Shown here piece after piece: positions 1 through 55,990 of a stretch of 55,990 bases of DNA (within the stretch, counting starts at the first letter, position 1; each line of letters starts with the position of its first letter). This stretch comes from a virus. The stretch lies in IMG/VR virus record IMGVR_UViG_3300045988_068752, positions 1-55,990 of that record; one strand, written 5' to 3'. The notes under the pieces are model-generated. The model was not told the origin of the DNA. It saw only the letters and a program-made list of their open reading frames with translations, and made no database searches. Both the position numbers and the translations under genes were made by a program.

Positions 1-55
1 TTTTTTTACGAGCAACTAGATTCTTATTGATTCGCCCGGAGAATTGTCCGATTCT
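1..55. repeat. 55-nt terminal direct repeat, identical to 55936..55990; probably the assembler overlap of a circular contig
   Basis: Positions 1..55 (tttttttacgagcaactag...gtccgattct) are repeated exactly at 55936..55990. Confidence 0.9.
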
Positions 56-172
56 TGGAATACCATTATTGGCTTTACGATTTCCCCATTTCATACCCTT
101 AATTCCAAAGTGTTCAATGATGTCATCAAAATTATCGGTATGAATTAGTTCATTATCATGAATAATTAACAT
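1..172 (-). CDS. GMKWG-motif family paralog 1, N-terminal part; continues across the circular junction
   Basis: ATG at 172 is preceded by GGAGGA. It encodes MLIIHDNELIHTDNFDDIIEHFGIKGMKWGNRKANNG... The frame runs off position 1 and, through the overlap, stops at 55922 just after an A8 tract. Confidence 0.6.
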   Translation of the reverse strand, partial: MLIIHDNELIHTDNFDDIIEHFGIKGMKWGNRKANNGIPRIGQFSGRINKNLVARKK

Positions 173-173
173 T

Positions 174-353
174 TTATCCTCCTGGATAGTGAATTTTAGT
201 ATTTAGTTGACTGATAATATCCAGCAGTTCATAATAGTTATTTCTGTATGATACAACCATATTTGTCAAAATAAATACATAGCATAAAAGGGTAAACATT
301 CCCACGAATGAGAGAATGCTAATTACCCATAAAATCTTTTCGGATTTCTTCAT
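174..353 (-). CDS. Small membrane protein (59 aa, one N-terminal TM helix)
   Basis: Hand-translated: MKKSEKILWVISILSFVGMFTLLCYVFILTNMVVSYRNNYYELLDIISQLNTKIHYPGG. It fills the gap between 362 and 172 and falls just below the ORF-track length cutoff. Confidence 0.55.
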   Translation of the reverse strand: MKKSEKILWVISILSFVGMFTLLCYVFILTNMVVSYRNNYYELLDIISQLNTKIHYPGG

Positions 354-16085: not shown

Positions 16086-16463
16086 CTACATTCTAGCAGA
16101 TGGGTTTGTTTTCTTAACAAACTTTTCTCGTTCTGCCCATAGACGATCGAACTCTTTACCATTATTATGTTTATCTGCGGTCCATAATTTTTCAGATAAA
16201 GAATCGTATTTCTTAATATTTTCAGGACTCATTCCGAGTTTATCTTTACGTTGTTTCTCTTGAACGGATAACGTATGAAATTTTTTAGCATCATTATAAC
16301 GAGGTTGACCTTTTATAGGTTTACCAGTTTTTGCATCAAATTGCAAAGATGGTTTAAATAGAGAAGAAAACTTCTTTTTCAAACGCCTACGTCCCCACTT
16401 CATACCTTTGATTCCGAAGTGCTCAATGACATCTTTGGAAGATTGAATAGAGTAATAATCCAT
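16086..16463 (-). CDS. GMKWG-motif family paralog (125 aa, basic)
   Basis: N-terminus MDYYSIQSSKDVIEHFGIKGMKWGRRR; the remainder is K/R-rich. Confidence 0.8.
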   Translation of the reverse strand: MDYYSIQSSKDVIEHFGIKGMKWGRRRLKKKFSSLFKPSLQFDAKTGKPIKGQPRYNDAKKFHTLSVQEKQRKDKLGMSPENIKKYDSLSEKLWTADKHNNGKEFDRLWAEREKFVKKTNPSARM

Positions 16464-16475
16464 AAAATATCCTTT

Positions 16476-16835
16476 CTATTTTAGATAATCTTCTAAAATT
16501 TTATTAATTGCTTTCTTATATACCGAATTAATAGCTTCGTCAATATAAGGTCTTGGAGGAACATATCCTCCGGTACCCGTACCATGCCCATAATGTAAAA
16601 TTATGGCAATGTTTACTCCGTCATTAATATGCGTATTGTAAATTTCTAAGTCTTGTCCTCTTGAAGTATTAACAATCCTATACCCCCATGACTGCGCAGT
16701 TAGTCCTGATTTTGTAGGAGTAGCATCGGCAAGTGCTTTGACAATAGCTTTCCCTAGAGAATCCAAATCGGACGTTCGAGGTCGTTTTAAAAACTTTTCT
16801 AAATTTCCGAAATCTCCAGAAACGTGAATTGGCAT
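16476..16835 (-). CDS. Putative HK97 gp10-like head-tail/tail component (119 aa)
   Basis: Size and position in the tail module. The weak family resemblance was judged by eye only. Confidence 0.4.
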   Translation of the reverse strand: MPIHVSGDFGNLEKFLKRPRTSDLDSLGKAIVKALADATPTKSGLTAQSWGYRIVNTSRGQDLEIYNTHINDGVNIAIILHYGHGTGTGGYVPPRPYIDEAINSVYKKAINKILEDYLK

Positions 16836-17866
16836 TATTTATTAGCCTCCTTACGTTTCTTCTCATCTAGTTTTCTAGCGGCAGTCATTGCTGCTTCATT
16901 AGAAATAAGACCAACCGCCGCTCCTGCGGCAGCATTACCACCAATTTGTTTGGCGTACATAGCTCGTCTCGCGATAGTTTCTAGTTTGTTCTCACTATCA
17001 CTGATGATGTCGTCGGTCAATTTCTTAGAACCCTTTTTAATGAGATTCTTATGATCAAAGAATATAGTAGGGTTCTTAGATTTAAATCCAGAGAATTTTC
17101 TATCATTGATATCCAATAATCCAGCATATCCTTTTTCTTTCAATTTACCATAGAACTTATTAATATTCTTTGTCGCATCAGCATCTTTCCCTTGAGCAGC
17201 AAGAGCAACATTAAATAATTCATATGGGGATCCTTTTCTAAATCTAGAATCAGCCGCTCTAAGTCCTACTGTAACTTCATCGGCCATTTTTCTAAAATCA
17301 GAATCATTCTTATAAAGCTCTTTAAAAGTCTTTTTGGCAGCTCTATTAGGCGCTATCTTCAACTTTTTATTAGCCATTAATGTTATGATATTATCTTCTT
17401 TATCTAGACCTTGAGTTTTTCGAACTTCCCCCGGAACCATAAATGGATTTTTACGTTGTCGAGCCCGTTGTCCTCCATAAATTCCACGATATTTCATTTT
17501 ATCATGTTTTCTATACGCAGCATAAATATGACGGTCTTTATCGAATTTGGTAGCAGATGTCACAGTGTCAACTTTTTTGCCGGCTTTGAAACTTCGACCT
17601 AGAAATTCGTCTTGGACATAGTTTTTTCCATAATATGCAGCCACCCCGGCTGCTACCGCTGCTGCAGTACCTAAAGCAATCTTTTCATTTCTAAGCCGTT
17701 TTTGTAACTTAGCTTGTGCTTCTTCATCGGTCATCCCTTTTTGTTTATAATAATACAATAGATTTTTCTTATGACCATCATAAAGTTTATGAACACCCCA
17801 CTTCATTCCTTTGACTCCGTGGTGTTCTAAAACGGTTTGTGTAGATAATCCTAAATAATTATTCAT
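16835..17866 (-). CDS. GMKWG-motif family paralog (343 aa) with Ala/Gly-rich hydrophobic segments
   Basis: N-terminus MNNYLGLSTQTVLEHHGVKGMKWGVHK. It contains IALGTAAAVAAGVAAYYG and, near the C-terminus, GGNAAAGAAVGLISNEAA. Confidence 0.8.
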   Translation of the reverse strand: MNNYLGLSTQTVLEHHGVKGMKWGVHKLYDGHKKNLLYYYKQKGMTDEEAQAKLQKRLRNEKIALGTAAAVAAGVAAYYGKNYVQDEFLGRSFKAGKKVDTVTSATKFDKDRHIYAAYRKHDKMKYRGIYGGQRARQRKNPFMVPGEVRKTQGLDKEDNIITLMANKKLKIAPNRAAKKTFKELYKNDSDFRKMADEVTVGLRAADSRFRKGSPYELFNVALAAQGKDADATKNINKFYGKLKEKGYAGLLDINDRKFSGFKSKNPTIFFDHKNLIKKGSKKLTDDIISDSENKLETIARRAMYAKQIGGNAAAGAAVGLISNEAAMTAARKLDEKKRKEANK

Positions 17867-20236: not shown

Positions 20237-22102
20237 TTATCCCCCAGGAACTCCTGTACGAGCAGCTTCAGATCCAGCAGCAGATCCAGCAGCAGGTTTG
20301 AAGTATACCGCAGCTTTAGCACGAGTAAGCGCACCAGACAAACGAGTTTCAATCAAATATTTCTGTTTGTTGAAGTCGATGTCGAAGTGTTCAAATGTGT
20401 TAACTTCACCACCACGGTTTGTACCGATTTGGTAGTCAGCCAAGTTAACCATGATCATTTCATCTGGTTTCAAGAAGTTTGTTTCAACGATTTCAGCAAC
20501 ACCAAACAATGAAGCAAGGTATTCTTTGGTAGCTGGTTGTTGGCCACCGAATACCCATTGTTCGTTCTTGTTACGGAGGAAACGAAGTTTAGTCAAGAAT
20601 AGAGGGTTCACGTAAAGTGATGGAGTTCCTGAACCAAGCATCTTAGTTTTCTCAGTAGCAACAGTTTCGAACAAGTCAAGAAGAGCGTTAGGGTTGTAAG
20701 TTGCTTTGATTGTGTAGAAGTCTTCGTCTTTAGTGATTGGACGAATCTTGTCTTCTTTGATTTTAGCAGCATCACCAGTAGCACGTCCGTCAGATACAAG
20801 GATTGCTTGAGCGATTTCGTCGTTCAACTTGATGCGCATTTCTTGGTTGAAGAATGCAGCAACGTTCAATTGTTGACCGATATCAATTTGGTCATCACGG
20901 TCAATTGATTGTTTTTTATAGATTGTTTGTGGGTCTGTCTTACGAGACAAGAAAGAAATGATTTGTTCTTTCTTTTCAGTTCCCTTGATATAACCTTTAG
21001 CACGAAGTTGTTCATCAGTCAAGTCAGAAAGGTCTGTCATGATAGATTTAACAAATGCAGTTGGTACTTTTGTTACGCTTTTAAGAATGTGTTCAGTAGC
21101 AGTGTTAGGAGAGTAGATTACTTGTACTCCGCCTTGAAGCGCATGATCAGGGAAAAGTTTGTCAATGTTGTTCATTGAGTGTTTAAGAGTGTCGCCACCG
21201 TCCATTTCAGAAAGAACTTGACCTACTGTACGACCACTTTTTTTAGCGGTTTCCATAGCAGCTTCAAGTGAGTGGCGAATTTCTTGTTCGTCATTTACAT
21301 TTTGTCCAAATGCATTATAGTGCATGATTTGTCCTCCTAGGGCAGATTGTTCTAATTCGGTTTCTTCATCGTCATCATCGTATTCTTCGGCAAGTTCGCT
21401 CAAAACTTCACCAACACGTTCGTCTACAGCATCTTCAAAGTCTTCTGCAATTGCAGCTTCATGTTGTTCCAAAGCTTCGTTTACCGCAGCTTCTGTAAGA
21501 ATAGCGACTGCTTCTTGTTGATCTTCATCAAGAGTTCCAAGAACTCCATCCATGATATCAGTAGCTTCACCTTCGTCCGCGTGTTGAATACGGTCGAAGA
21601 GGCTAATACGTTCTTGTCCAAGCAAAACATCGTTTGCTTTATGTAAAAGTTCGTTACTTTCCATTATAATAGTTTCCCCTTCATTAGGATTATCGGAGTG
21701 CTGTAACACTTCCGTAATAACAGCGCCTGGATTGGCTCCGGCGACTACAAGTGATACTTCATAGATATTACCATGGATAACGTCATTTTGGGGCGTACGT
21801 TTGATACGATTTGCACCGATTGACATCGACCAGATATCTCCATGTTGTACGAGTTCTTTGGCGCTTTGGGCTTTTGGAGTATTGTTGAAATATCCTTCGC
21901 CGTAAACGCCGTCGTTCGCATGATGCAACATAACATGACCGATTACATTCTCTGGCGTACTATGATCATGTGACCAAACCAGAGGAACCTTCTGTCCGTT
22001 ATTGTCTTTAAACGCACCATGTCGAATAATAACACCGTCTGTACAACGAGTGTCGTTACGAGTTACATAACCCGCGAAATCATACTTGGGATGTTTATCC
22101 AT
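20237..22102 (-). CDS. Prohead protease - acidic scaffold-like linker - HK97-fold major capsid protein fusion (621 aa)
   Basis: The N-terminal ~140 aa look like an HK97-family (S78) prohead protease (AGYVTRNDTRCTDGVIIRHGAF...VPLVWSHDH...EVSLVVAGANPGA). An acidic block EEYDDDDEETELEQ follows. The C-terminal ~300 aa are capsid-like (...MIMVNLADYQIGTNRGGEVNTFEHFDIDFNKQKYLIETRLSGAL). Confidence 0.75.
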   Translation of the reverse strand: MDKHPKYDFAGYVTRNDTRCTDGVIIRHGAFKDNNGQKVPLVWSHDHSTPENVIGHVMLHHANDGVYGEGYFNNTPKAQSAKELVQHGDIWSMSIGANRIKRTPQNDVIHGNIYEVSLVVAGANPGAVITEVLQHSDNPNEGETIIMESNELLHKANDVLLGQERISLFDRIQHADEGEATDIMDGVLGTLDEDQQEAVAILTEAAVNEALEQHEAAIAEDFEDAVDERVGEVLSELAEEYDDDDEETELEQSALGGQIMHYNAFGQNVNDEQEIRHSLEAAMETAKKSGRTVGQVLSEMDGGDTLKHSMNNIDKLFPDHALQGGVQVIYSPNTATEHILKSVTKVPTAFVKSIMTDLSDLTDEQLRAKGYIKGTEKKEQIISFLSRKTDPQTIYKKQSIDRDDQIDIGQQLNVAAFFNQEMRIKLNDEIAQAILVSDGRATGDAAKIKEDKIRPITKDEDFYTIKATYNPNALLDLFETVATEKTKMLGSGTPSLYVNPLFLTKLRFLRNKNEQWVFGGQQPATKEYLASLFGVAEIVETNFLKPDEMIMVNLADYQIGTNRGGEVNTFEHFDIDFNKQKYLIETRLSGALTRAKAAVYFKPAAGSAAGSEAARTGVPGG

Positions 22103-22123: not shown

Positions 22124-23446
22124 TTATTTGCCGCCATTTTGAAAGTCCTCTTCCGAATACTCTCCATCTTGGGGGTATTGAGCGTATTCATCGTATTGAC
22201 CTTCAGGGGACCCGACAGACCCAGGAATAGACACATTCTGACGAGCGTCAGAGATATTTGGATTATACAATTGGTCAGCCATAGGGTCGGCGATAGGACC
22301 GTATCCGATGACTGCACGGAATTCATTAGAAGTAAGAATTCGATTACGAAGCAAAGAATCACCAATCGTAGCAAGTTGACTTGTAGGTACCAATTTAAAT
22401 GGGTCACTATAAGTAACAATACGATGGCCTTGGGTATAACCAGTCTTGGTTATAAATTTTCGTTGAAATTCTTCTTGAATCCGTGTAACAATAGGATCAA
22501 TTGTTCTTGTATAATAGTTTTGCATTTGTTCCGCATTAGCGGTACCATCAAATACTGCTTTAGTCAAACCGATTTGGCTTAACAATTCATCTGTCAAATA
22601 TTTAATCTCATCCATTAGGTTGGAATTAATTTGTCTATTCAACTGAGTAATCTTTTCATCGGCAGTAATATATGCAATACCCAAATTAGAATCTTGAAGT
22701 TGTTTCTCAATATCTTTCACACGTGCATCAGCTTCTGCTCTCTTGATATCATTTCTGACAGGGACAGGAAGTTGAAGAATCATGTTCCATTTATTAGCGA
22801 CCGCATCAATATCTTGTTTATCTAGGATAGACAATTTTTGAATTAGGCGGTTCATAGTTGGGTTGTCATTACCTAAAATATTTGCTAGTGGATTTTCGAT
22901 AATCGCACACATCTTCTTAGGTACTATAACCTCTGAGAAATCCCCTTTATGTTCGTTATAAAGTTTTACACGAACCTTTGTAGGAAACCATTCCATAATT
23001 TTACCAACACGCATTGACTTAATATCATACGCCTCAGATTGAGTTGGGTCTAAAGTTGCTTCGACTGGAACAGCAGCCACAACCCCTTCATCAAATAGAG
23101 AATATACTAAATCATGAAAGAAATCTGTAGCGGACTGGTCCATGTTCATTTCAACTTCAAATAATCGTTGCAATGAGGACCCATACTGGACAGTCTGATT
23201 CTCTTTATCTTCAGCCAATTTAACGTGTTGAAACTTAACCGCACTAGCATCCATAGCGATTCGGTTGAAGATCATTGAAGAGATTGATGCCCTAGCATAT
23301 GTTCTTGATGGAATCGAATTGTTAGGATTAAGTGCTCTAGGTTCAGTCGATAGTTGAAACACGGGTTGTGTTTCGGTTAATGATGTTGTGTCATTTCGGT
23401 TAAACATAGACCAGGCATGTTGTAAACCATCAGTAAACATACTCAT
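22124..23446 (-). CDS. Portal protein
   Basis: 440-aa ORF between TerL and the protease-capsid gene. Confidence 0.7.
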   Translation of the reverse strand: MSMFTDGLQHAWSMFNRNDTTSLTETQPVFQLSTEPRALNPNNSIPSRTYARASISSMIFNRIAMDASAVKFQHVKLAEDKENQTVQYGSSLQRLFEVEMNMDQSATDFFHDLVYSLFDEGVVAAVPVEATLDPTQSEAYDIKSMRVGKIMEWFPTKVRVKLYNEHKGDFSEVIVPKKMCAIIENPLANILGNDNPTMNRLIQKLSILDKQDIDAVANKWNMILQLPVPVRNDIKRAEADARVKDIEKQLQDSNLGIAYITADEKITQLNRQINSNLMDEIKYLTDELLSQIGLTKAVFDGTANAEQMQNYYTRTIDPIVTRIQEEFQRKFITKTGYTQGHRIVTYSDPFKLVPTSQLATIGDSLLRNRILTSNEFRAVIGYGPIADPMADQLYNPNISDARQNVSIPGSVGSPEGQYDEYAQYPQDGEYSEEDFQNGGK

Positions 23447-23461
23447 AGTATTTCAGCCTTT

Positions 23462-25189
23462 CTATCCGAATAAGTCTAGATTACGTTTATACGCAACCCA
23501 TGCGTCAATAAGCGCGGCAACATTATCAATCTTTTCATCAGCACGACGTTTAGATAATTTGTAGTTACCGTTGTTGTCTTGAATTGCTATAGCATTACCC
23601 ATAGCGAATTTCATAAGTTCTTCATCGAAAATAAGAAGACGTTCTGTAGCCAAGTTTTTAAGTTCTCCCATAGGTACAGATTCTGTTTTGGCGCCTTGTA
23701 TTACTTTCTCAACACCGTATTCTCCATTGTCGCGAATCCATCTTTCAACAAATTCTCGAGCGTTATACGGGTCATAACCGAAAGCGTATACAACATACTT
23801 ATGCTCATAAATCATTGCTGTTAGGTCGTCGTAGACTCTGTTCATGTCTAAGACTACCCCATCCATAACTATAAGAGTTCCTTCAGCAATCAATTCGTCG
23901 TAACGATTTCTCATGGCCGAGGTTAACTTTTTAAGTTTCGATTCACAAACATAAGACCTAGTTTTTATACCGAACCTTCCCCTACCAAGAGGGAATAAGA
24001 ATGTAAATGCACAGAAGTCATCCCCTTGTGATAAGTCGGCGCCCAATGTACATTCTAGACCATCAAAGTTCTGAGGTCTATGCGGTATAGTTTCTTCATA
24101 TACAAAGAAATATGTGTATCCTTCAACAGGAATACCAAAACGTTTAGCGAGAGTATCCGCTCTTGTAGCAGGTTGATTCTCTGCACGTTCTACTTCATTT
24201 CGATAAGTTTCGTAGGAAACTGTAGCTCCCAAATTGGGATTGGCTTTCATCCATAGCTCAGGATAAGCCACTTCTCTAACGTCGTCGAGTCTATAGTACC
24301 AGATAGATACATGCGGGTTGAAATATCGGCCTTCCAATATGTCTACCAGCTCCATCTTGATAGTATCCCCGACACCGTCACGAGCAGTTCCTTCGGAAGA
24401 TGTAGCGATTATGAGATAGTTGTCATTCTTGGAAGCACCTTGTTCAATTGCCCCAATGACATCTTCTCTAACTTCCCCAGATAGCCATTCATCTACAGAA
24501 GCGTACTTACATCTTAAACCTTGTAGCTTATCAACTGACATAGGTCTTATTTCTAAGAGACTATTCGTGGCAAAATTTTCAACACCCTTCTTAGTAGATG
24601 CCAATAATTGTTTCTGAGTAAGATTACCAGTCATTTTAGACCCCTGAACCATGTATTGAATCAGAGGACCTTTAGCTCTACTTAAAGCAGTTCTAAATGG
24701 ACCCATAATTTCCTCAGCTTGCTTCATAGTTGGAGCAGCAACTACCTGATGGGTTGTAGATGTGTCAATCAACAACATGTATGCCTGCATGTATGTTGAG
24801 TATAGTGATTTAGCAGCACCACGTCCGACAATAAGATACTGTTTGGTCGTGAGTCGCTTAAATTTTGTTTTTATTTCCCATTTACCGAGTTTAGGATTGT
24901 AGACCTTGTCCTCGGAAATGTAAAACCAAGCGAGGGCACACTCGGCCCATAATTTAAAGGACGGTAATAGCGTGACATCGCTACCGTCTGTTAGAGTCAT
25001 TTCATTTTCGCAAAATCTAACAAAGCCTTCAATCGCTTGATTATCGTAGTAATAATCCGGTGACTCAATTAAGAAGTCAATACGGTTCATTTCCAGAGAC
25101 ACCATTCGATTTACCGGAATCTCACCTCTAAGAACTGCTTCTTTGAACTTCATGTATTCTTCCGGATAAGCTTTATTGGATAATACCAA
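23462..25189 (-). CDS. Terminase large subunit
   Basis: Walker A LIVGRGAAKS, Walker B-like YASVDEW, and C-terminal nuclease-type acidic motifs (GADLSQGDDF, GYDPYN, KIDNVAA). Confidence 0.9.
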   Translation of the reverse strand: MVLSNKAYPEEYMKFKEAVLRGEIPVNRMVSLEMNRIDFLIESPDYYYDNQAIEGFVRFCENEMTLTDGSDVTLLPSFKLWAECALAWFYISEDKVYNPKLGKWEIKTKFKRLTTKQYLIVGRGAAKSLYSTYMQAYMLLIDTSTTHQVVAAPTMKQAEEIMGPFRTALSRAKGPLIQYMVQGSKMTGNLTQKQLLASTKKGVENFATNSLLEIRPMSVDKLQGLRCKYASVDEWLSGEVREDVIGAIEQGASKNDNYLIIATSSEGTARDGVGDTIKMELVDILEGRYFNPHVSIWYYRLDDVREVAYPELWMKANPNLGATVSYETYRNEVERAENQPATRADTLAKRFGIPVEGYTYFFVYEETIPHRPQNFDGLECTLGADLSQGDDFCAFTFLFPLGRGRFGIKTRSYVCESKLKKLTSAMRNRYDELIAEGTLIVMDGVVLDMNRVYDDLTAMIYEHKYVVYAFGYDPYNAREFVERWIRDNGEYGVEKVIQGAKTESVPMGELKNLATERLLIFDEELMKFAMGNAIAIQDNNGNYKLSKRRADEKIDNVAALIDAWVAYKRNLDLFG

Positions 25190-25200
25190 AACGTTATCTC

Positions 25201-25650
25201 CTATTTCTTAATTACTTTAACAAGTTGCGTTGTTAAAGGAGCATAATCCTTAGGTTTGTTTTTCATAAAGTCATTAGCGACAGTCTTAAGAGCTACACCA
25301 GCGACTGTAGGAACAACAAATCCTGCAGCTTTCTTAAGAGTACCTTTAACAGTAGGTCCGCTATTGGTCTTATTGATTTTGTTTGCTCTTTGGATTTGCT
25401 CTGCGAAATCATTCTCCATGCGTAATCTGTTAGTTGCATTTCGAAGATCTTTATCAGTCATAACATGTCGATTGTTATACTTTTTATTCCATTTACTATT
25501 TGCAGCTTTATTAGCCTTTTTAATTTTATTGCGGGAATCGTATCGGTTCCTAAGTTTTCGGAATCCCCATTTCATACCTTTGACACCGTGGTGTTCAATG
25601 GTATCTAGATCCGAAACAATAGCAATAAGTTTTTCATCATTTAGGCTCAT
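25201..25650 (-). CDS. GMKWG-motif family paralog (149 aa, basic)
   Basis: MSLNDEKLIAIVSDLDTIEHHGVKGMKWGFRKLRNR...; C-terminal hydrophobic patch AAGFVVPTVAGVALKTV. Confidence 0.8.
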   Translation of the reverse strand: MSLNDEKLIAIVSDLDTIEHHGVKGMKWGFRKLRNRYDSRNKIKKANKAANSKWNKKYNNRHVMTDKDLRNATNRLRMENDFAEQIQRANKINKTNSGPTVKGTLKKAAGFVVPTVAGVALKTVANDFMKNKPKDYAPLTTQLVKVIKK

Positions 25651-25981
25651 TAAAATCCTCCTTTTGGATGATTATACGATGAGCAGTAGATTGAATAGAT
25701 TTTTCTAGGGAAGTAAGTACGCTCCCAGCAGGAGGGTCAAATTTAATTCTGATGTTAAGATAAACATACTGCTTGACCAATCGAAGTAAGTGTGTGTCAG
25801 TGGTATTTAATAATTGTTCCCAATTTGAATCTTCACTCATAACAAAGTCTTTGTTAAGTTGTGCTAGTTGAGACAATTCACCAATGATACCGTCTAACTC
25901 CATAATTAATCTTGAATCAAACCCGTCGTCTTCTTCCGAAGCAAAATCTAAAACAGACTTTACGTCTTTTAGAATTGTCAT
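25637..25981 (-). CDS. Hypothetical protein
   Basis: ATG at 25981 follows GGTGAGGTGG. The ORF-track start at 26026 would overlap the HNH gene. Confidence 0.55.
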   Translation of the reverse strand: MTILKDVKSVLDFASEEDDGFDSRLIMELDGIIGELSQLAQLNKDFVMSEDSNWEQLLNTTDTHLLRLVKQYVYLNIRIKFDPPAGSVLTSLEKSIQSTAHRIIIQKEDFNEPK

Positions 25982-25988
25982 ATCCACC

Positions 25989-26420
25989 TCACCATAATTT
26001 AGTGTCTCCAGGCGTTCTTTCAACATAATTAGATTCGGGATAAACTTTCTTATAATGGATTATAGCATGAGTTTCGTACGAAGTTGTTATTAGTAAATCT
26101 GGATTGAGAAGAATGTCTTCATTCCATTCTAATAAGTCTTCTTCGGTTACAGGAATCATATGATGAACTAATACTCGTCCCTCGATATTGATACCAGGAA
26201 CTCCTAGGTCATAACCCATATCTCTAGCGATAACATAATCTCTAAGTTCTCGCCAAAGCTTGCTTCGATAGAATCTATTAGATATCTCTCGAGGTGATTT
26301 GTATCCTCTATTTATTAATGACAGATAATTTAATCTGTCACCAAATGAATCAAATGTTATAAGTTTAGAATAACTCAAATCTTGAAGAATCGTTCTATCG
26401 GTTGTTAATAATGATGTCAT
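25989..26420 (-). CDS. HNH endonuclease
   Basis: VLVHHMIPVTEEDLLEWNEDILLNPDLLITTSYETHAIIH contains the HH...N...H..IH pattern. The gene sits in the packaging module. Confidence 0.65.
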   Translation of the reverse strand: MTSLLTTDRTILQDLSYSKLITFDSFGDRLNYLSLINRGYKSPREISNRFYRSKLWRELRDYVIARDMGYDLGVPGINIEGRVLVHHMIPVTEEDLLEWNEDILLNPDLLITTSYETHAIIHYKKVYPESNYVERTPGDTKLW

Positions 26421-26734
26421 AGTGCTTCAGATGGAGCATAACCACGAATTGCAGCGATTACTGCTTCGCTATCTCCTTTTCCTTTTACTTCACTGTCAAT
26501 CAAACTGATTTTGGATTCATTGAGTTTCTTCTTAGCTTTTAAGTTTTCCAACTGGATTTCGTTTTCAATTGTACCATAACGAAGCAATGCGTTCAATGTA
26601 CTGGGAGCGATAGTTCCATCTTGTAACTGTCTTTCCGCCAAATCAAATGCTTGCTTAGTTAATTGTTGCATTCGTCCTTCTGGAGTGAATGCTTGACGAA
26701 TTAAATAGTCGTCTTTATTTTTCTTCCGGGGCAT
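26417..26734 (-). CDS. Hypothetical protein; possible small terminase subunit
   Basis: 105-aa basic N-terminus in the packaging neighbourhood; no diagnostic motif. Confidence 0.3.
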   Translation of the reverse strand: MPRKKNKDDYLIRQAFTPEGRMQQLTKQAFDLAERQLQDGTIAPSTLNALLRYGTIENEIQLENLKAKKKLNESKISLIDSEVKGKGDSEAVIAAIRGYAPSEAL

Positions 26735-27053
26735 CTTCGATTACCTCCGGTTTCTCCTGAAGCTCGCGAAGAACACGAACAGCATGTTCGATATAGTCTT
26801 CTGCTTGATCAACCGTTAAATTAACTTTTGTTTCTTTAGCGAAACTCAAAAGTTTTTCTAACGCTTCTCGTTTCTTCTCATCATTAGGTAACAACATGTT
26901 ATCCAATGAAGATACAATAATCATAGCACGTTCTGCTAAAGTTGTAACTGATTTGTTGTGTGTAGCAGCTCCCAAATATTTAACCAATTCAAGAACCACT
27001 GGCGCAACGAAAACAATTAAAGTTGAAATTTCAATAAGTTTATCAACTGTCAT
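26715..27053 (-). CDS. Hypothetical membrane-associated protein
   Basis: ATG at 27053 follows AAGGAGA. Hydrophobic N-terminal segment IEISTLIVFVAPVVLELVKYLGAA. Confidence 0.55.
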   Translation of the reverse strand: MTVDKLIEISTLIVFVAPVVLELVKYLGAATHNKSVTTLAERAMIIVSSLDNMLLPNDEKKREALEKLLSFAKETKVNLTVDQAEDYIEHAVRVLRELQEKPEVIEDAPEEK

Positions 27054-27459
27054 TCTTAGTCTCCTTATGTCTTTGTTCTTCAATATAGTCATTAACTAAT
27101 CTTGTTATATAGGAGTTTCCTCCTTTATTAACATACGAATCGTATAGTGACAATATCTCGGAAACGGATAATCTTTCAGATTGTATTCCAGTAACTATTT
27201 GTAAACGAAGAAAATCTCTTTCTTGGGTTTGTTGCATCTCTTGAAAGCTAACAGTAAGTGCTTTCATAGAATTTTTAATACCCTCAATTTCTTCGTTTTG
27301 CTTCTTTTCCAAGTTAGTCCATAGTTTTTGGAATACTCTTGAGCCAAAACCAACGATCGACGCTCCAACACCAATGTACACACCAATCTGAGAAAGAACT
27401 TCAGGAGAAAAGAACCAGTGTATCAGAGCTTGTACGTGTTCAGCCATCTCTTGGGACAT
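27043..27459 (-). CDS. Hypothetical membrane-associated protein; first gene after the GC-rich island
   Basis: ATG at 27459 follows AAAGGAGG. Hydrophobic segment VLSQIGVYIGVGASIVGFG. Confidence 0.6.
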   Translation of the reverse strand: MSQEMAEHVQALIHWFFSPEVLSQIGVYIGVGASIVGFGSRVFQKLWTNLEKKQNEEIEGIKNSMKALTVSFQEMQQTQERDFLRLQIVTGIQSERLSVSEILSLYDSYVNKGGNSYITRLVNDYIEEQRHKETKNDS

Positions 27460-33264: not shown

Positions 33265-36200
33265 TCACGCGGTCTCAGGTTTTCTTACTTTGAGAGTTCC
33301 GTGATTGATAGAAATTGTTTGAGCATCAGGATATTTGTCTTGGAGCTCAAGAGCATCGACATAGTCCTTAGGCATGTTGTCAACGATTTGAGTAATATCC
33401 CCAACCTTGATAATTTTCTTAAGTCCATCGACTGCAATTTTATCGTAGTAAGAGAAATCAACATCTTCATAATCGAATTCGGAAGTTTGCTTAAATAAAT
33501 ATCCTTTTGTTCCTGCAATGGATTTGAAGTTTTCATTATCTTCAGTCCACATGCATTCTCTTCCTGACTTGGAAGCATAAATAGAACCGACCTTACCAAC
33601 GAATTCGTCGCCAAGATAAATATGACCCTTCGATTGTTTAGTGATAAAGAAATCTCTATCAACTAATTCTTCTTTGGTCCATACACGTTTGAGTAAATAT
33701 GTGTTAGCATACTCGGCTCCTGTTGGCGACCACTCATCATCTTCAAGCTGAGCAATGTACACAGCATTGTTAATAAGAGCCATACGTTTGTAAGTATGTT
33801 CGTGTTCGAACTTGTAGTTATATTTAGGTAATTTACCAAAGTCTTCAACGAACTTAATAATCTTTTCATCAGCATCTGGGATTTTAACAGAGTCGGTCTT
33901 AATATGACAGACCTTGTATCCTTGCTCTTCGATTGCAAATTTCAAGTCGACCATAAATAAAGCTCCACGTTTCGCAACGATGTTGTCAATATTGTCTGGG
34001 TGTTTGAACTTGTTATCGAATTTGGCAGAGGTCATTCCATATACTGAGTTGATTACAATCTTCAACGCTGTAACCAAAGGCTTACGATATTCTGGGTTGT
34101 CCAAGAATGGAACCAAGATACCATTAAACATTTGTTTAACTTCATCAACCTTATTATGCTTGAGTAATACACGAACTTTAAGTAAGTCTGCATATCTCTG
34201 AGTATATGGTCCGAAGTAGTTCATATTGATTAATGAATTCGGATGCATAGATTCTACGTCAAGCAAAGCGATATTTTTGTATACACCAGGTTCAGCATAC
34301 ACAAATCCACCTTCACCAGTTTCATAGCCACGGTAATATGACTTACCGAACTCATATTTGTATCCTGGGAAAATAGTATCAAGTTTAACATAATTAAATT
34401 TCTCTTGTGGATTAGGGTCGTCACCAAAGATAAATTTAGCAGTGAGCTGATTGTTAGTTGCATTCATCGAACCTTTTGAAATGGTTGCTAAGATTTCACG
34501 CGCAACGTAGTCAGCATATATAGCGTCGAATAATTTCTCAGTTGCATCAACGTCGTTAACACAGTAATCGACTACAACTGGAACTAACTCGTCAGGGACT
34601 GGTTGGTCCCAAGGAATTTCCATCTCGACGTGTTTAATTCCTAAGTCAACTTCCCAGCGCTTGAGTGACTGCTTCTTCTGAGAATACTCATAAATATCGG
34701 TATAGCTTAATTCATAAGCTGCCGCATACATTCCACTCTTCGCATTTTTTTCGTTGACGATTCTGTAGGACTGACGGAATAATTCTAAATTATCACATCC
34801 GAGTAATCGCGCATACAGAATATGATTATCGTATCGACGGTTGTTAAAACCGACTAGAGGAAATGAAAGAAGATGTTCGATTTGGTCTGGAGTTGGATTA
34901 ACCCATTTCACAAATTCGTCTTCTCCATATTTCTTCCACACAACAACAAACAGATTTGGATAGACCTCAATATCGAAGAATACTAATTCCTCTTTTGGAT
35001 ATATCTTGGTTCCACTTGTCAGCTTATCTTCCAGTGCTCCATTATCATCTCGAATAGACGACCATGGGATTTTCTGGAATACAGCCAAACAATATTCTCT
35101 GTTATTGGTTGAACGCAGAGCACGAAGAAATACATCATGCTTCAAATCAGTCAAGTCATATTCTAGACCCATGTCATATGCTTTCTGAATTTGGTCTGCA
35201 ATCCAATCGATTGTTGGTTTTGTATTTGGGTGACTTGGTTTCTCACCCTCAATAAGACCCAACTGTCTTTTTACAAATTTACGAAGAGTCTTCTCCGTGT
35301 ATGTAATTTCTTTTACGTCTTCGTACATCTTAACCTTTCTCTCTTTCAGCGGCAAGCCCGATGAAATATGAGATGGTTGAAGATTATTTGAGCCTTTATC
35401 AATTCGTCTCAGAGAGGCATTGCCTTTATATACTTTGATTTCAATATGCTCATCTACCAAATTATCTAACTCATTGACATTACCATCATAGATATAATGC
35501 AAATGAATTCCTTGTCCGGATTTAGACACCTCGGCATATGTTGGTGGGAACTTAGATGCGGCTTCGATATTTAAATCAAGGTTCTTCTCACCGTTCTCAT
35601 CTTTCAAATCGAAATCAATAACAATATGATTCAACGGAACTTTAACCCAATGTAATTTGTCCGTATGAATATCTTTTAAAGTTGTACGCACATCATCCCA
35701 TTTCATCATGGGATTTCCATTTCTTTGCGCTAGCTGTGCAGGATAATCTGCAGCAAGTCTATTAAATACTCTATTGTTGTAGTTGAACTTCAGCCAATTA
35801 TCAGGAACAATCATTTCATCAGGATTAGTTGTGCTGACAAGTCCTTCAGGAAATGCAACATTCCATCTAAATCCTTTGAAATAATTCTTAACGCGAGTAC
35901 CATCTATAGCGCTATCTTTGACCATGGTATCAAAATAACGCAGGGCTTCTCGTTTGATAACAGCTTTATAACCATCTGTCTTCCAACCCATTTCTTCCAA
36001 ATATTCTTTATACAGTTCTCCGAGTTGTCGAAGGCTAATTCCATCCTGCATATAAATTGCATTAGAACGAATAAAATCGAAGATATGGTCTGTTTGTTCG
36101 GCCATCTCAATATCGAAGTATTCATCGAAATAATCAAACCCTAATTCCTCAAAACGATTAATCGCTATATGAGCAATATAAGGCAACTCAAATTTTATTT

Positions 36201-37143
36201 GAGCCATCAATTGATTATATTTCGTATGACTAACTTTCTGTCCACTAGGATTTACAACAACGGCTCGTCGAGTAATACCCGAGTCAACGTTACGAACTTT
36301 ATAACGTTGGTTTGATGCTGTAATTAACAATCCATTAAAAATGACAGAATAAGGTTCCTTAAATTTCTTATTGACCTGAATAATTTCATGACTCGTCAAT
36401 TTCAATAACGGGGTATCGTTTTGAATATGACTGATATCAGTATCCTCATCAATTAACAATGGTACCTCTTGAACTTGTCCTGTTGCAAACTGGTCATTGC
36501 TTGTGAGCAGTTTCAAGTCAATAGGGGCACAGTAATCTTGGAATAACATTTTAAATATCTTTAGGACAGTTCCTTTACCGCTACCTTTCGAACCATACAA
36601 ATACATGAATTTTTCAATCTTATACATGTTGTTCGTTAATAATGCACCCATAAACCACAATATCTTATCGAGTTCTTGTGGCATATATAAAGTTCCAACC
36701 AATTCAGTAAAGGCGGGAGCTTCTCCTTCTGTTGGTGTATAATTTAATTGAGTAGTAGCATAGTCATGTCGCTTCATCTTGTGGTCAGAGAACAATATCT
36801 TTTGGTTGAAAGAAATATCGCCAGACTCACAAGCTTTACAGAAATCTTGAAATAGCCTGAACTTACCAACAGATGCTCTTCTAATTTCTTTTACATCAAT
36901 TCGTAACCCAGGTCTACCCTCTTCCAGTTCTTTAGCTCTACGCCAAAGTAAAGTGTCAATATCGTAAAATAAGTTCTTCTGTTGGGTATCCCAATAAGAA
37001 CCATTCCAATACGCATAGAATTTGGAGCCTTTAACAACTAAATCCTTAGTATCTCCGAAAATAAAATCTGGAGATACTTCATAATCTACCGTTCGGTTGT
37101 TTGATGTGAACTTTTTGATAGATACGTCTAAAAAATCCACCAA
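33265..37143 (-). CDS. Replicase fusion: SF3 (D5/P4-type) helicase + AEP primase-polymerase + family B DNA polymerase (1292 aa)
   Basis: Walker A GSKGSGKGT (36568..36594) with LLIDED. AEP motifs VIDFDLKD (DFD at 35608..35616) and SKSGQGIHLHY. PolB motifs: ExoI FFDIEV (34963..34980), ExoII GFNNRRYDNHIL, ExoIII YCVNDVDATEKLF, motif A LLDVESMHPNS, motif B KIVINSVYG, motif C HIKTDS (33889..33900). Confidence 0.85.
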   Translation of the reverse strand: MVDFLDVSIKKFTSNNRTVDYEVSPDFIFGDTKDLVVKGSKFYAYWNGSYWDTQQKNLFYDIDTLLWRRAKELEEGRPGLRIDVKEIRRASVGKFRLFQDFCKACESGDISFNQKILFSDHKMKRHDYATTQLNYTPTEGEAPAFTELVGTLYMPQELDKILWFMGALLTNNMYKIEKFMYLYGSKGSGKGTVLKIFKMLFQDYCAPIDLKLLTSNDQFATGQVQEVPLLIDEDTDISHIQNDTPLLKLTSHEIIQVNKKFKEPYSVIFNGLLITASNQRYKVRNVDSGITRRAVVVNPSGQKVSHTKYNQLMAQIKFELPYIAHIAINRFEELGFDYFDEYFDIEMAEQTDHIFDFIRSNAIYMQDGISLRQLGELYKEYLEEMGWKTDGYKAVIKREALRYFDTMVKDSAIDGTRVKNYFKGFRWNVAFPEGLVSTTNPDEMIVPDNWLKFNYNNRVFNRLAADYPAQLAQRNGNPMMKWDDVRTTLKDIHTDKLHWVKVPLNHIVIDFDLKDENGEKNLDLNIEAASKFPPTYAEVSKSGQGIHLHYIYDGNVNELDNLVDEHIEIKVYKGNASLRRIDKGSNNLQPSHISSGLPLKERKVKMYEDVKEITYTEKTLRKFVKRQLGLIEGEKPSHPNTKPTIDWIADQIQKAYDMGLEYDLTDLKHDVFLRALRSTNNREYCLAVFQKIPWSSIRDDNGALEDKLTSGTKIYPKEELVFFDIEVYPNLFVVVWKKYGEDEFVKWVNPTPDQIEHLLSFPLVGFNNRRYDNHILYARLLGCDNLELFRQSYRIVNEKNAKSGMYAAAYELSYTDIYEYSQKKQSLKRWEVDLGIKHVEMEIPWDQPVPDELVPVVVDYCVNDVDATEKLFDAIYADYVAREILATISKGSMNATNNQLTAKFIFGDDPNPQEKFNYVKLDTIFPGYKYEFGKSYYRGYETGEGGFVYAEPGVYKNIALLDVESMHPNSLINMNYFGPYTQRYADLLKVRVLLKHNKVDEVKQMFNGILVPFLDNPEYRKPLVTALKIVINSVYGMTSAKFDNKFKHPDNIDNIVAKRGALFMVDLKFAIEEQGYKVCHIKTDSVKIPDADEKIIKFVEDFGKLPKYNYKFEHEHTYKRMALINNAVYIAQLEDDEWSPTGAEYANTYLLKRVWTKEELVDRDFFITKQSKGHIYLGDEFVGKVGSIYASKSGRECMWTEDNENFKSIAGTKGYLFKQTSEFDYEDVDFSYYDKIAVDGLKKIIKVGDITQIVDNMPKDYVDALELQDKYPDAQTISINHGTLKVRKPETA

Positions 37144-52925: not shown

Positions 52926-53040
52926 AAAAGGGTGCCGGATTCGAACCGACGACAGCCATCCGTATTCACGTTATCCAATGTGGGGAATACGGGCGCTCTA
53001 ATATGGATAAATATCCACACACCACTGAGCTAAGCCCTTT
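52926..53040 (-). ncRNA. 114-nt tRNA-like RNA with expanded D-loop and anticodon arm
   Basis: Minus strand: AAAGGGC TTA GCTC AGTGGT[GTGTGGATATTTATCCATAT]TA GAGC G CCGTATTC[17-nt loop]GAATACGG ATGGCTGTC GTCGG TTCGAAT CCGGC ACCCTTT + T-run. The D-arm, T-arm and acceptor pairing are canonical. About 40 nt are extra. Confidence 0.5.
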
Positions 53041-53071: not shown

Positions 53072-53145
53072 AAAGAATAGAGTGGAGTTGAACCACGTCG
53101 CCCCTCCTGAATAATCAGGATGCTCTCCCGCTGAGCTATATTCTT
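53072..53145 (-). tRNA. tRNA gene (about 73 nt) with non-canonical anticodon loop; identity unassigned
   Basis: Minus strand: AAGAATA TA GCTC AGCGGGA GAGC A TCCTG ATTATT CAGGA GGGGCGAC GTGG TTCAACT CCAC TC TATTCTT + T8. The 7-bp acceptor stem is perfect and the D-arm and T-loop are canonical, but the anticodon loop has only 6 nt. Confidence 0.6.
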
Positions 53146-53172
53146 CATTATATGGTATGTAAATCCTGCGGA
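53143..53172 (-). promoter_or_regulatory. Conserved promoter-like motif, copy g
   Basis: Minus strand: CGCAG GATTTACATACCA TATAAT GAAG. The terminal AAG are tRNA positions 1-3. Confidence 0.6.
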
Positions 53173-53913: not shown

Positions 53914-53986
53914 TTTGAGATGAAAATCACACCCGGGCAAATTTTGGAAATTCAAAAAAAGAGGGAGCCATGTAGACTCCGCTTCT

Positions 53987-54400
53987 TTATTTACCAGTAT
54001 ATGAATTATAATATTTGGTCGCTAACGAACGATGTCCTAAATATAGATCATAATTATCATCTATCTTTTTCTTTAGCTTTTTGGCGACTTTTTGTTTAAT
54101 CTGCTTGCCTTTCTTTTTCGCTTTCTCGGATTTTTCTCTATAAAGATAAGCATTCACGTGAGATTTATAAAGCGCTTTATCTGCTGCAGATTGATGTTGA
54201 GCAGCCATACCTAACTTGTAGTGAGGATGATTTTGGTCGAATACTGCAGGTAACGTATTTGAAGCATGACGGTCTGATTCTTTATAGCTGGAGTATAAAT
54301 CTTTAAGTTGTTTATGACGACTCTTAATACCCCAACGCATACCTTTAATCCCATAGTGCTCAATAACATCTTGGGAGGATTGAATAGAAATATAATTCAT
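53987..54400 (-). CDS. GMKWG-motif family paralog (137 aa, basic)
   Basis: MNYISIQSSQDVIEHYGIKGMRWGIKSRHKQ... Confidence 0.8.
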   Translation of the reverse strand: MNYISIQSSQDVIEHYGIKGMRWGIKSRHKQLKDLYSSYKESDRHASNTLPAVFDQNHPHYKLGMAAQHQSAADKALYKSHVNAYLYREKSEKAKKKGKQIKQKVAKKLKKKIDDNYDLYLGHRSLATKYYNSYTGK

Positions 54401-54415
54401 TTATACCCCCCCTAA

Positions 54416-54958
54416 TTAATAACGTCCGCCAGCTAAAGTTGCAGCTTTCTTACGTGCTGTTTTAGCGTTTGCAATATCTCTGTTAAAATTATTATTCAGA
54501 TCTTTGTAGGCAGCAGACATTTTCTTACGTGCCATTGTCTGACGTTCTCGATAATCTTTACGAGATTCTCCTTGAGATTTTTTACGCTTACTGAAATAGG
54601 CATCTTGACTGTATTTATTAAAGATCTTATCATCACCATCTCCATGACGGGATAGCGCCGCATTCCTATCTTTCTTATATTTTTTATTAGCTTTGACCAT
54701 ATCGTTAACATAACGATTACGGAATTCCAATGACCGTGTTGTACCCATTAAGGTTCCCATTTTTGATCGTCTTCTTGATTCTTTAATGGACCTATCAGTT
54801 AGAATAGGGTGTCGTACAGAGTTGATAGCTGTTCTGCCTGCAGCAGCGCCCCAACGTTTCATACGCTGGCCCCACTTCATTCCTTTGACTCCGTGGTGTT
54901 CGATAACATCTTGAACGTTATCTGTGTGGTAAATTTCATCTTCATTAATAATAATCAT
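54416..54958 (-). CDS. GMKWG-motif family paralog (180 aa, basic)
   Basis: MIIINEDEIYHTDNVQDVIEHHGVKGMKWGQRMKRWG... Confidence 0.8.
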   Translation of the reverse strand: MIIINEDEIYHTDNVQDVIEHHGVKGMKWGQRMKRWGAAAGRTAINSVRHPILTDRSIKESRRRSKMGTLMGTTRSLEFRNRYVNDMVKANKKYKKDRNAALSRHGDGDDKIFNKYSQDAYFSKRKKSQGESRKDYRERQTMARKKMSAAYKDLNNNFNRDIANAKTARKKAATLAGGRY

Positions 54959-54964
54959 AATTAT

Positions 54965-55561
54965 TTATCCTTTCAATCCAGCTTTTCTAGCCATTCTTTG
55001 GTATTCAGCAGCTCGGCCGCCATACATACTTGCATTAGCGCCATAATTATTAATGAACGAGTTTGACATAGTACGTTCATGAACATAATGGCCAGATTTA
55101 TCCATCAAATCTTTTCGACTCGATCTATATAATTCTTCCCTATATTTCATTTTATCACGAAGAGTTCTAGGGTCATTTTTACCATATTTGGATTTGGATT
55201 CTTTCCATTTGTTTCTAGCCTCGTGATAAGCTCCATCATAAGGTTTACGAACTTGCTTATATGCGTCTTTATAAGAAATTCCTTTTTTATTCGATAGAAT
55301 TTTAGCTTGTTGCTTTTCAATCTTTCTACCGTTTTGATAACGACGATATTGTCCATCTAGACCTTGGAACGACCCAGCAAATTCATCCATAAATCGGTTC
55401 ATAGCAGTATCAGACATACGTTTGTTTAATTTGGTCAGTTTTCTTTGAGCTCTAGCAGCGCCTCTTGAAGATACAACCCTTCGCTGGCCCCACTTCATGC
55501 CCTTAATCCCGAAGTGTTCGATAACATCTTGGGAAGATTGAATAGAGTAATATTCAGTCAT
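54965..55561 (-). CDS. GMKWG-motif family paralog (198 aa, basic)
   Basis: MTEYYSIQSSQDVIEHFGIKGMKWGQRRVVSS... Confidence 0.8.
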   Translation of the reverse strand: MTEYYSIQSSQDVIEHFGIKGMKWGQRRVVSSRGAARAQRKLTKLNKRMSDTAMNRFMDEFAGSFQGLDGQYRRYQNGRKIEKQQAKILSNKKGISYKDAYKQVRKPYDGAYHEARNKWKESKSKYGKNDPRTLRDKMKYREELYRSSRKDLMDKSGHYVHERTMSNSFINNYGANASMYGGRAAEYQRMARKAGLKG

Positions 55562-55572
55562 TCATTTACTCC

Positions 55573-55935
55573 TTATAAATATTTACGTTTGGCTACGCCG
55601 CTCATGTTGTATTTAGCAATATTATATGCTTTAGCGGCAGCCTTACCAGCGTTCTTAACCCCATACTTAGCGGCCTTACCAGCAAATTTGACGCCTTCCC
55701 TAGCAAAAGCTGCTTTCTGAGGATCTGTCACTTTCCATAATTGATATTGTAACGCCGCAGCCGTTGCGGCCCCAATAGTGCCTCCTACAATTTTCTTATT
55801 ACGTTTATTACGAGTAAGACGTAACGCCGCTTTTTGATTCATGTCAGTAAGGTCTTTATTTTTATTAATAAGTTCCCTACGTTTAGGATCGTTCTTACCA
55901 AGAGCAGCAATTTTCTTTTCATTATCCCGTTTCAT
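55573..55935 (-). CDS. C-terminal portion of GMKWG paralog 1 in the +1 frame (basic region plus Gly/Ala hydrophobic segment); no RBS of its own
   Basis: MKRDNEKKIAALGKNDPKRRELINKNK...KIVGGTIGAATAAALQYQLW... begins inside the A8 tract (55935..55942). The architecture matches the C-terminal halves of the other family members. Confidence 0.55.
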   Translation of the reverse strand: MKRDNEKKIAALGKNDPKRRELINKNKDLTDMNQKAALRLTRNKRNKKIVGGTIGAATAAALQYQLWKVTDPQKAAFAREGVKFAGKAAKYGVKNAGKAAAKAYNIAKYNMSGVAKRKYL

Positions 55936-55990
55936 TTTTTTTACGAGCAACTAGATTCTTATTGATTCGCCCGGAGAATTGTCCGATTCT
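55936..55990. repeat. Second copy of the 55-nt terminal overlap
   Basis: Exact match to 1..55. Confidence 0.9.

Follow-up and report, generated by a model that had tools for sequence, protein, structure and literature searches.

Seven genes in the stretch of viral DNA analysed here, the 55,990-nucleotide IMG/VR record IMGVR_UViG_3300045988_068752 (hereafter the window), encode proteins that share a short peptide motif, which is catalogued as the Pfam family PF23847 (DUF7211). We found that this motif is a hallmark of one siphovirus lineage, which includes Lactococcus phage 1706, Rhodococcus phages Pepy6 and Poco6, phages of Streptomyces, Gordonia and Arthrobacter, and gut and oral phages. Each genome carries one conserved anchor copy upstream of the large terminase gene (terL), together with further copies, variable in number and subject to rapid turnover, in the gene clusters for the head and tail. 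We propose, with about an even chance of being right, that the motif is a docking tag that recruits the proteins carrying it into the assembling particle, probably into the procapsid interior, for packaging and probable ejection, and that trimming by a protease may also take place. The family itself was already known, without a known function. What is new is the pattern, holding throughout the lineage, of a single anchor copy accompanied by variable ones, the occurrence of polyprotein and enzyme fusions, and a candidate link to a protease.

A conserved peptide on divergent basic proteins

The first 55 bases of the window are identical to bases 55936 to 55990, an assembly overlap, so that the record represents a circular contig of 55,935 bp, which corresponds to ENA contig ZHAN15-1_SAMEA2738152 scaffold_113. 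A six-frame scan with the regular expression [IVT][IL]EH[FHY]G[IV]KGM[KR]WG found the motif in exactly seven open reading frames (ORFs), all on the minus strand. A hidden Markov model (HMM) built from 386 motif instances and run on all stop-to-stop segments of the circularised window recovered the same seven copies with E values of 1e-10 to 1e-13, the next-best match being at E=3.3. Both scans thus bear out the initial annotation of this DNA, which had listed seven ORFs with a common N-terminal module. In addition, all seven proteins score 32.2 to 41.6 bits against PF23847, a 25-position model with a curated gathering score of 27 bits, and this is the sole family membership that holds for the seven proteins. 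The pattern is therefore real and highly non-random.

Pfam describes DUF7211 merely as a family of unknown function, and its entry includes, as far as could be seen, neither the copy-number pattern nor the lineage restriction, gene slots or fused enzyme domains reported below. The related PHROG families are phrog_7021, 14126, 7502 and 35934, NCBIfam has no names for these proteins, and literature searches on DUF7211, GMKWG and 1706 ORF7 returned nothing relevant. Thus, the earlier statement that the motif could not be assigned to any characterised function still applies to the function of the family, although the motif itself had already been catalogued.

The six intact window genes encode proteins with 20 to 25% Lys plus Arg and isoelectric points (pI) of 9.85 to 10.4. 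Beyond the motif, the window proteins are mutually unrelated by BLASTP (best E=0.65), and Gly/Ala-rich hydrophobic segments are found in three ORFs (16835-17866, 25201-25650 and 55573-55935). These results agree with the previous description of the proteins as strongly basic, divergent after the motif and, in several cases, rich in Gly and Ala. At the DNA level, the 57-nt segments encoding the motif are 56 to 77% identical between window copies, around half of the codons for the same residue differ, and exact runs among the segments measure 6 to 18 nt, with one 32-nt pair (16835-17866 and 54416-54958). Given this low identity and the differences in codons, we conclude that selection acts on the peptide.

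Family anatomy and predicted structure

The full motif spans 18 residues and reads [DE][DE]-Phi-L-E-H-[YFH]-G-[VI]-K-G-M-[KR]-W-G-x-R-[KR]. The logo of 304 internal copies is [DE][DE]-F-L-E-H-[YFH]-G-V-K-G-M-[KR]-W-G-V-R-[KR], with an acidic stretch ahead of it. Of the 193 ORFs in the sample of IMG/VR loci described in the next section, 184 have the start of the motif among their first 40 residues. The motif is thus usually N-terminal but not strictly so, as in fusions it is internal or repeated. The top-scoring representatives of the family are 300 to 1,500 residues long and contain two to five motifs spaced around 200 residues apart; these polyprotein-like proteins are fusions of units, each of which opens with a motif.

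Some of these fusions include enzymes. We ran Pfam on 63 long proteins, picked for a long region before the motif or a long gap between motifs. Of these, 25 have a 2H phosphoesterase domain (2'-5' RNA ligase superfamily), four contain a GNAT acetyltransferase and a single one has a CW_7 repeat. For example, in Streptomyces phage Thiqqums gp6 and Rhodococcus phage Poco6 gp015, the 2H domain comes first and the motif lies behind it, so that the motif is not N-terminal in these proteins either, while in Streptomyces phage Bilo gp6 the GNAT domain lies between two motifs. One of the relatives (P0122) retains both H-x-T catalytic motifs. The units are basic, with a median pI of 9.2 for internal units and 10.2 for the last one, and the N-terminal enzyme domains are acidic.

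AlphaFold predictions suggest that the motif is disordered on its own. For the anchor protein (25201-25650; alignment of 34 sequences), the motif is modelled as low-confidence coil and the rest as long helices with no globular fold (predicted template modelling score, pTM, of 0.24). In this protein, the motif occupies residues 17 to 32 and is followed by a second conserved motif, HVMTDKDLRNATNRLRMENDFAEQ, and then by an amphipathic Gly/Ala-rich helix. The model of the 343-residue paralogue (16835-17866; 74 sequences) has a predicted local distance difference test score (pLDDT) of 76 and a pTM of 0.63. Its N-terminal motif is again low-confidence coil, with residues 1 to 25 below a pLDDT of 50; behind it come a helical region and, at approximately residues 90 to 300, a conserved alpha/beta domain that is predicted with confidence. 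DUF7211 paralogues from phages of Gordonia, Arthrobacter and Streptomyces show the same fold (BFVD E values of 4.5e-8 to 1.8e-15). In the PDB, neither the motif nor the anchor profile had a sequence match, and the 343-residue paralogue had no significant fold match. Its top match, an ejection protein from the pre-ejectosome of cyanophage A4 (E=0.0097, TM score 0.29), is a weak likeness between a model and a structure and might serve only as a lead.

Anchor and variable copies

We examined the positions of the copies in a sample of 80 IMG/VR loci containing 193 DUF7211 ORFs. In 53 of the 54 loci with enough sequence, a DUF7211 ORF lies directly upstream of terL. Of all copies, 60 are located between the connector gene and terL, 45 between terL and the portal gene, 28 after the distal tail gene (Dit), 14 between the tail-completion and tape measure genes and 13 between the chaperone and tail-completion genes. 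Both the number and the position of the copies vary among close relatives.

The copies that precede terL form an orthologous subfamily of their own, which we defined by its position between the connector (1706 ORF6-like) and terL and by the motif M-T-x-x-D-L-x-x-A-T-x-R-L-R-x-E-N-D-F-A-E-Q. This second motif is found in 34 of 56 anchors and in 3 of 137 other paralogues, and the window gene 25201-25650 has both the position and the second motif, as seen in the alignment of 34 orthologues. Because of its position, we considered a small terminase as a possible role for this gene; this candidate was rejected, given that the protein matches no terminase family and that its orthologue in phage 1706 is annotated as structural. 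An extreme arrangement of copies was observed in Rhodococcus phage ReqiPoco6 (locus L020, 17605-21957), in which six consecutive DUF7211 paralogues fill the interval between terL and the portal gene, and a seventh copy, a fusion with a 2H phosphoesterase, lies before terL.

A hallmark of one siphovirus lineage

The initial annotation had suggested an HMM search to define the distribution and neighbourhoods of the motif, and such searches led to one lineage and a fixed slot upstream of terL. A profile of the 35-residue region matched 10,738 cluster representatives at E<=1e-3 among 1.84 billion. In a phage database, the 22-residue motif was found in 233 records at 850 places, and the window TerL matched 251 records at E<=1e-100. 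The numbers of records with the motif and with TerL are the same for Arthrobacter (95 and 95), Gordonia (55 and 55), Streptomyces (54 and 54), Curtobacterium (7 and 7) and Microbacterium (4 and 4), while for Lactococcus they are 2 and 13. Divergent motifs may explain the Lactococcus counts; one copy in phage 1706, for instance, reads H-R-G-V-I-G-M-R-W-G. Another part of the difference between 233 and 251 is explained by six records named "Caudoviricetes sp." that match TerL and not the motif, as the three of them that are listed are TerL-only fragments of 1.65 to 1.75 kb.

All 22 motif loci for which neighbouring genes were available share a common gene order (gp04-like, HNH, connector, DUF7211, TerL, portal and protease-major capsid protein), with TerL E values around 1e-250, and they come from genomes assigned to Firmicutes, Actinobacteria, Bacteroidota, Acidobacteria and others. 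Members of the lineage, which extends across bacterial phyla, have in common a conserved TerL, portal protein and fusion of an S78 protease with the capsid protein. We observed a sole exception, a lone DUF7211 ORF in the chromosome of Streptomyces sp. NPDC001843 (locus L015, 9842-10495) with no phage markers of the lineage within 10 kb on either side, which may be a remnant or a captured gene.

Among GenBank phages, the window is closest to Caudovirus D_HF5_2C, a phage from human saliva, the structural genes of the two being 78% identical at the nucleotide level. Caudovirus D_HF5_2C has four DUF7211 copies, three of them before the tape measure gene and one before terL. The lineage is the same as a "supercluster" that has been described as comprising the Streptomyces BI-cluster, Rhodococcus Pepy6 and Poco6, Arthrobacter Mudcat, Lactococcus 1706-like phages and Faecalibacterium FP_oengus (bioRxiv 10.1101/842583). 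This preprint contains no discussion of the DUF7211 family.

The split seventh gene

The initial annotation had treated the seventh member as one gene (1..172 plus 55573..55935). These 535 nt are not a single ORF, since a run of eight A residues (A8; 55935-55942, minus strand, of which 55936-55942 duplicate window positions 1-7) splits the gene by a one-base frameshift. The motif-bearing ORF ends after 61 residues (...ARKKNETG*), and the remaining 120-residue ORF, in the +1 frame, begins with an ATG whose A is the final base of the run. One A fewer would join both ORFs, and the orthologue P0006 is in fact an in-frame fusion. The same A8 is present in two other assemblies, both 100% identical to the window and probably derived from the same sample. 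The split could reflect a mutation, heterogeneity in the population or expression that depends on slippage.

Relatives of the tandem-block genes (among P0001-P0120) show similar features, as many of them are truncated to 30 to 100 residues, apparently by frameshifts in Lys-rich, A-rich genes; P0001, for example, is a shifted version of 53987-54400. These truncated relatives may reflect assembly errors or real and frequent inactivation. The fact that the first alignment-based protein search returned only relatives of 30 to 100 residues was a bias of candidate selection.

A possible docking tag for the assembling particle

Evidence that DUF7211 proteins are present in virions is indirect and comes from the annotation of ORF7 of Lactococcus phage 1706, which occupies the same slot before terL as 25201-25650, is 462 residues long and contains two motifs. 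This ORF was deposited as a "structural protein" in a record in which calls based on similarity are labelled "putative" and unassigned genes "unknown", and the structural proteins of this phage were reportedly identified by mass spectrometry. Virion proteomics also exists for Arthrobacter phage ArV2, which is from an unrelated lineage. Moreover, given that the motif is tied to one virion gene set across host phyla, its partner is expected to be a phage component and not a host molecule.

We infer the following mechanism. The motif, disordered alone, would attach the protein that bears it to a conserved part of the particle under assembly, most likely within the procapsid; candidate partners are the portal and the scaffold/protease region of the capsid fusion. 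The attached basic helical proteins, and in relatives the 2H phosphoesterases and GNAT acetyltransferases, would then be packaged and probably delivered with the DNA. The L-x-H part of the motif may, in addition, be a site at which the maturation protease trims leaders or separates fused units.

The possible involvement of the protease comes from the capsid fusion. An alignment of the protease::capsid fusions of 14 members of the lineage revealed an acidic linker (approximately residues 135 to 320) with four conserved [LI]-x-H-[SAG] sites, one of them just before the capsid domain. Between 4 and 6 of the 5 to 10 linker His residues in each sequence are in Phi-x-H-[small] sites, the figure for the window being four of seven. 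Judging from their sequence, these are candidate sites at which the maturation protease could dismantle the scaffold-like region. Sites matching the linker pattern are also found in the leaders of two window genes, I-Y-H-T-D in 54416-54958 and L-I-H-T-D in the split seventh gene, and L-L-H-A-I is present in many anchor orthologues. The L-E-H of the motif itself fits only the first three positions of the pattern.

Several points weigh against docking inside the procapsid followed by packaging and ejection. The link to the virion is the database label of one orthologue, and the likeness to the cyanophage ejection protein is not significant. The residue after the motif His is aromatic, in contrast to the small residue of the capsid-linker sites, and an upstream site of the H-S-D type, which we tried and rejected as a general cleavage site before each internal motif, is present in only around 10% of internal copies. 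In addition, the tail-gene slots of several copies fit loading into the tail equally well. Finally, given the truncated relatives and the frameshifted copy in the window, individual paralogues may be dispensable or decaying.

Alternative explanations

The strongest alternative, which we consider unlikely and yet worth serious attention, is that the motif is mainly a recognition or processing site of the maturation protease, with leader-bearing precursors or polyproteins being cut by the S78 prohead protease at or near L-x-H and the conserved residues being needed for recognition of the substrate and not for docking; both explanations could hold together. It would account for the two to five motifs at the unit boundaries of polyprotein-like proteins, for the four linker sites that hold most of the linker His residues and for the similar sites in two window leaders and many anchor orthologues. 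Nevertheless, the cleavage specificity of the S78 protease is putative only, and the aromatic residue after the His and the rarity of the upstream H-S-D pattern are also unfavourable to this explanation. Furthermore, the most strongly conserved residues (G-x-K-G-M-K-W-G-x-R-K) come after the putative cut, where a simple cleavage site would not need them.

A second alternative is that the motif binds the tail assembly chaperone, the tape measure protein or the lumen of the tail tube, and that the proteins exit together with the tape measure when the phage infects. On either side of the tail-completion gene, shortly before the tape measure gene, there are two copies in the window and three in D_HF5_2C, 27 of the 193 IMG/VR copies are in slots flanking the tail-completion gene and 28 follow the distal tail gene, and the proteins are helical, basic and partly hydrophobic, as are segments of the tape measure. 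The universal copy and the largest variable set, on the other hand, adjoin terL and the portal gene (60 and 45 of 193), and the Poco6 copies and most copies of other actinophage relatives are in the head module, and we regard loading into the tail as improbable.

We find it similarly improbable that the motif has an intracellular role outside the virion, in which it would bind a conserved host molecule or a nucleic acid, for instance tethering basic proteins to DNA or RNA, and the gene positions would reflect late expression only. The proteins are basic throughout, the motif is rich in Gly, Lys and Arg, and the lack of any window protein seen in a particle would be expected. However, although the hosts belong to several phyla, the motif and the phage structural module go together one-to-one, and 1706 ORF7 carries a structural annotation. 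The acidic stretch before the motif and its invariant His, Met and Trp residues are also better suited to a pocket in a protein than to the binding of nucleic acids.

Lastly, the earlier proposal that the repeated segment of about 45 nt that encodes the motif is a dispersed DNA repeat at which recombination shuffles gene cassettes, which could be thought to fit the variation in copy number and position between close relatives and the single 32-nt exact match, is rejected on sequence identity as very improbable, since the segments show the low identity, differing codons and mostly short exact runs given above and the peptide is conserved across phyla of very different G+C content.

Comparison with known systems

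The nearest functional analogues of a DUF7211 docking tag may be the T4 internal proteins, the MuF toxins, the Dar proteins of phage P1 and the cargo-loading peptides of encapsulins, none of which is related to it in sequence. The T4 internal proteins (IPI, IPII, IPIII and Alt) travel in the head of a phage that has a prohead protease and are ejected with the DNA, and some of them counter host defence. They resemble the DUF7211 proteins in that a short shared peptide is found on otherwise unrelated, often basic proteins. Their tag is around 10 residues long, strictly N-terminal and removed at L/I-x-E by gp21, whereas the DUF7211 motif has 18 residues, can be internal or repeated, has L-E-H and not L-x-E before its core and is only putatively cleaved. 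DUF7211 phages also differ from T4 in being siphoviruses whose S78 protease is fused to the capsid protein. The initial annotation had compared the motif with the T4 tag and suggested that these are packaged or ejected virion proteins. The idea of virion proteins retains partial support from the short module shared by divergent basic partners among virion genes, from the structural annotation of 1706 ORF7 and from the lock of the motif to one head and tail gene set, but a sequence relation to the T4 tag was not found, and Pfam, PHROG and NCBIfam provide no link between DUF7211 proteins and T4 internal proteins.

Encapsulin cargo-loading peptides are short, conserved, disordered and mostly C-terminal, and they dock diverse cargo on the inner face of an HK97-fold shell. 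DUF7211 has a different sequence and its contact with a capsid shell is hypothetical; its predicted disorder would be compatible with such docking and is not diagnostic of it. In P1, a myovirus, some Dar proteins have N-terminal targeting regions, they act after ejection, and there is a hierarchy of incorporation that depends on Hdf and DarA. These anti-restriction proteins are incorporated into the head during assembly (PMC12810830). DUF7211 proteins are unrelated to them in sequence.

MuF (SPP1 gp7-like) polymorphic toxins of temperate phages combine a conserved morphogenesis module with variable cargo, are encoded beside the portal gene and have been proposed to be delivered with the injected DNA (PMC5576092). 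The combination of a conserved module with variable domains is shared with DUF7211, in which unrelated C-terminal parts and, in relatives, 2H, GNAT and CW_7 domains accompany the motif. Unlike the C-terminal MuF effectors, the 2H domain is N-terminal to the motif and the GNAT domain is between two motifs. Pfam found no MuF match in the window proteins or in 73 relatives, and DUF7211 also differs in being a short disordered motif instead of a folded domain, in having several paralogues per genome and in that no toxin-immunity pairs were seen. Overall, the greater length of the motif, its internal or repeated occurrence, the several paralogues per genome and the siphovirus lineage with a protease-capsid fusion set DUF7211 apart from all four systems.

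Organisation of the window

Nearly all genes of the window are on the minus strand. According to PHROG and Pfam, their order begins with the holin, a 1706-ORF4-like protein, an HNH endonuclease, the connector (Phage_connect_2), the DUF7211 anchor, TerL and the portal protein. These are followed by a 621-residue fusion of S78 prohead protease, acidic linker and capsid protein, and then by the adaptor, tail terminator, major tail protein, tail assembly chaperone, a phrog_4338 protein, the DUF7211 gene 16835-17866, the tail-completion protein, the DUF7211 gene 16086-16463 and a tape measure protein of 2,325 residues. Next come Dit, a 1,525-residue tail protein, four further genes, a 59-residue membrane protein and the block of four DUF7211 genes (Table 1).

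The genes of the tandem block are spaced 6 to 15 nt apart. A terminator-like site follows the block and none was found between the tail genes and the block, so it is reasonable to consider that the block closes the late operon, as the initial annotation had suggested in placing the four copies last in the long structural transcription unit. Directly upstream of the block is the 59-residue ORF (174-353, minus strand), which has one hydrophobic segment, and GGAGG is located just ahead of the first start codon of the block.

Other features were observed elsewhere in the window. ARAGORN reported a tRNA-like element with an undetermined anticodon at 53073-53146 (minus strand), which scores 24.1 bits against the Rfam tRNA model, compared with a gathering score of 29, and a T-arm-like hairpin (GGTTCGAATCC) lies near it at 52934-52950 (minus strand). 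A 1,292-residue protein with a DUF5906 domain is encoded at 33265-37143 (minus strand), and its counterparts are annotated as DNA polymerase/primase in D_HF5_2C and DNA polymerase in 1706; a putative RNA polymerase, to which this gene might correspond, has been proposed in a preprint as a signature gene of the lineage. The holin-like gene (26715-27092, minus strand) precedes the packaging genes instead of following the tail genes, an arrangement shared with 1706 and D_HF5_2C.

Table 1. DUF7211 genes and associated features of the window, in window coordinates
Feature	Coordinates	Strand	Basis or remark
Anchor DUF7211, 149 residues, upstream of terL	25201..25650	-	Pfam 33.7 bits
DUF7211 paralogue, 343 residues, between tail-chaperone genes and tail-completion gene	16835..17866	-	Pfam 37.9 bits; phrog_7502 E=2.8e-23
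DUF7211 paralogue, 125 residues, between tail-completion and tape measure genes	16086..16463	-	Pfam 38.6 bits; slot recurs in relatives
DUF7211 paralogue, 137 residues, last of tandem block	53987..54400	-	Regular expression and Pfam
DUF7211 paralogue, 180 residues, tandem block; long leader with I-Y-H-T-D site	54416..54958	-	Regular expression and Pfam
DUF7211 paralogue, 198 residues, tandem block	54965..55561	-	Regular expression and Pfam
Seventh DUF7211 gene, 5' part, 61-residue motif-only ORF	start 172, across circular junction, TAA 55922-55924	-	Pfam 41.6 bits
Seventh DUF7211 gene, displaced 3' part, 120-residue basic ORF with Gly/Ala-rich segment	55573..55935	-	+1 frame, overlaps the 61-residue ORF by 14 nt
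Terminator-like hairpin followed by T-run, directly after last tandem gene	53964..53980	-	
Large terminase (TerL), lineage marker co-occurring with DUF7211	23462..25189	-	
Portal protein	22124..23446	-	
Fusion of S78 prohead protease, acidic scaffold-like linker and major capsid protein	20237..22102	-	
Connector (Phage_connect_2), orthologue of 1706 ORF6, directly upstream of anchor	25637..26026	-	

Implications

If the DUF7211 motif is a virion-loading tag, it would explain more than 10,000 uncharacterised protein clusters and show how widespread phages, including those of dairy Lactococcus, those of the gut and the mouth and several hundred classroom-isolated phages of Arthrobacter, Gordonia and Streptomyces, deliver proteins made in advance into the cell. 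The presence of 2H phosphoesterase and acetyltransferase domains in the fusions suggests that enzymes for counter-defence or host takeover are packaged. A broader version of the docking proposal, plausible although on balance somewhat improbable, is that DUF7211 is the universal virion-loading address tag of a multi-phylum lineage, which would mark a fast-changing co-injected arsenal, be the siphovirus counterpart of the T4 internal-protein system and provide a portable packaging tag for foreign proteins. In that case, the 2H phosphoesterases could destroy cyclic-nucleotide immune signals before phage gene expression. Should the motif be sufficient for encapsidation, such a short tag would also be of practical use for placing cargo inside phage particles. 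Many members of the lineage are in culture and their hosts are easy to grow, so the docking proposal is directly testable.

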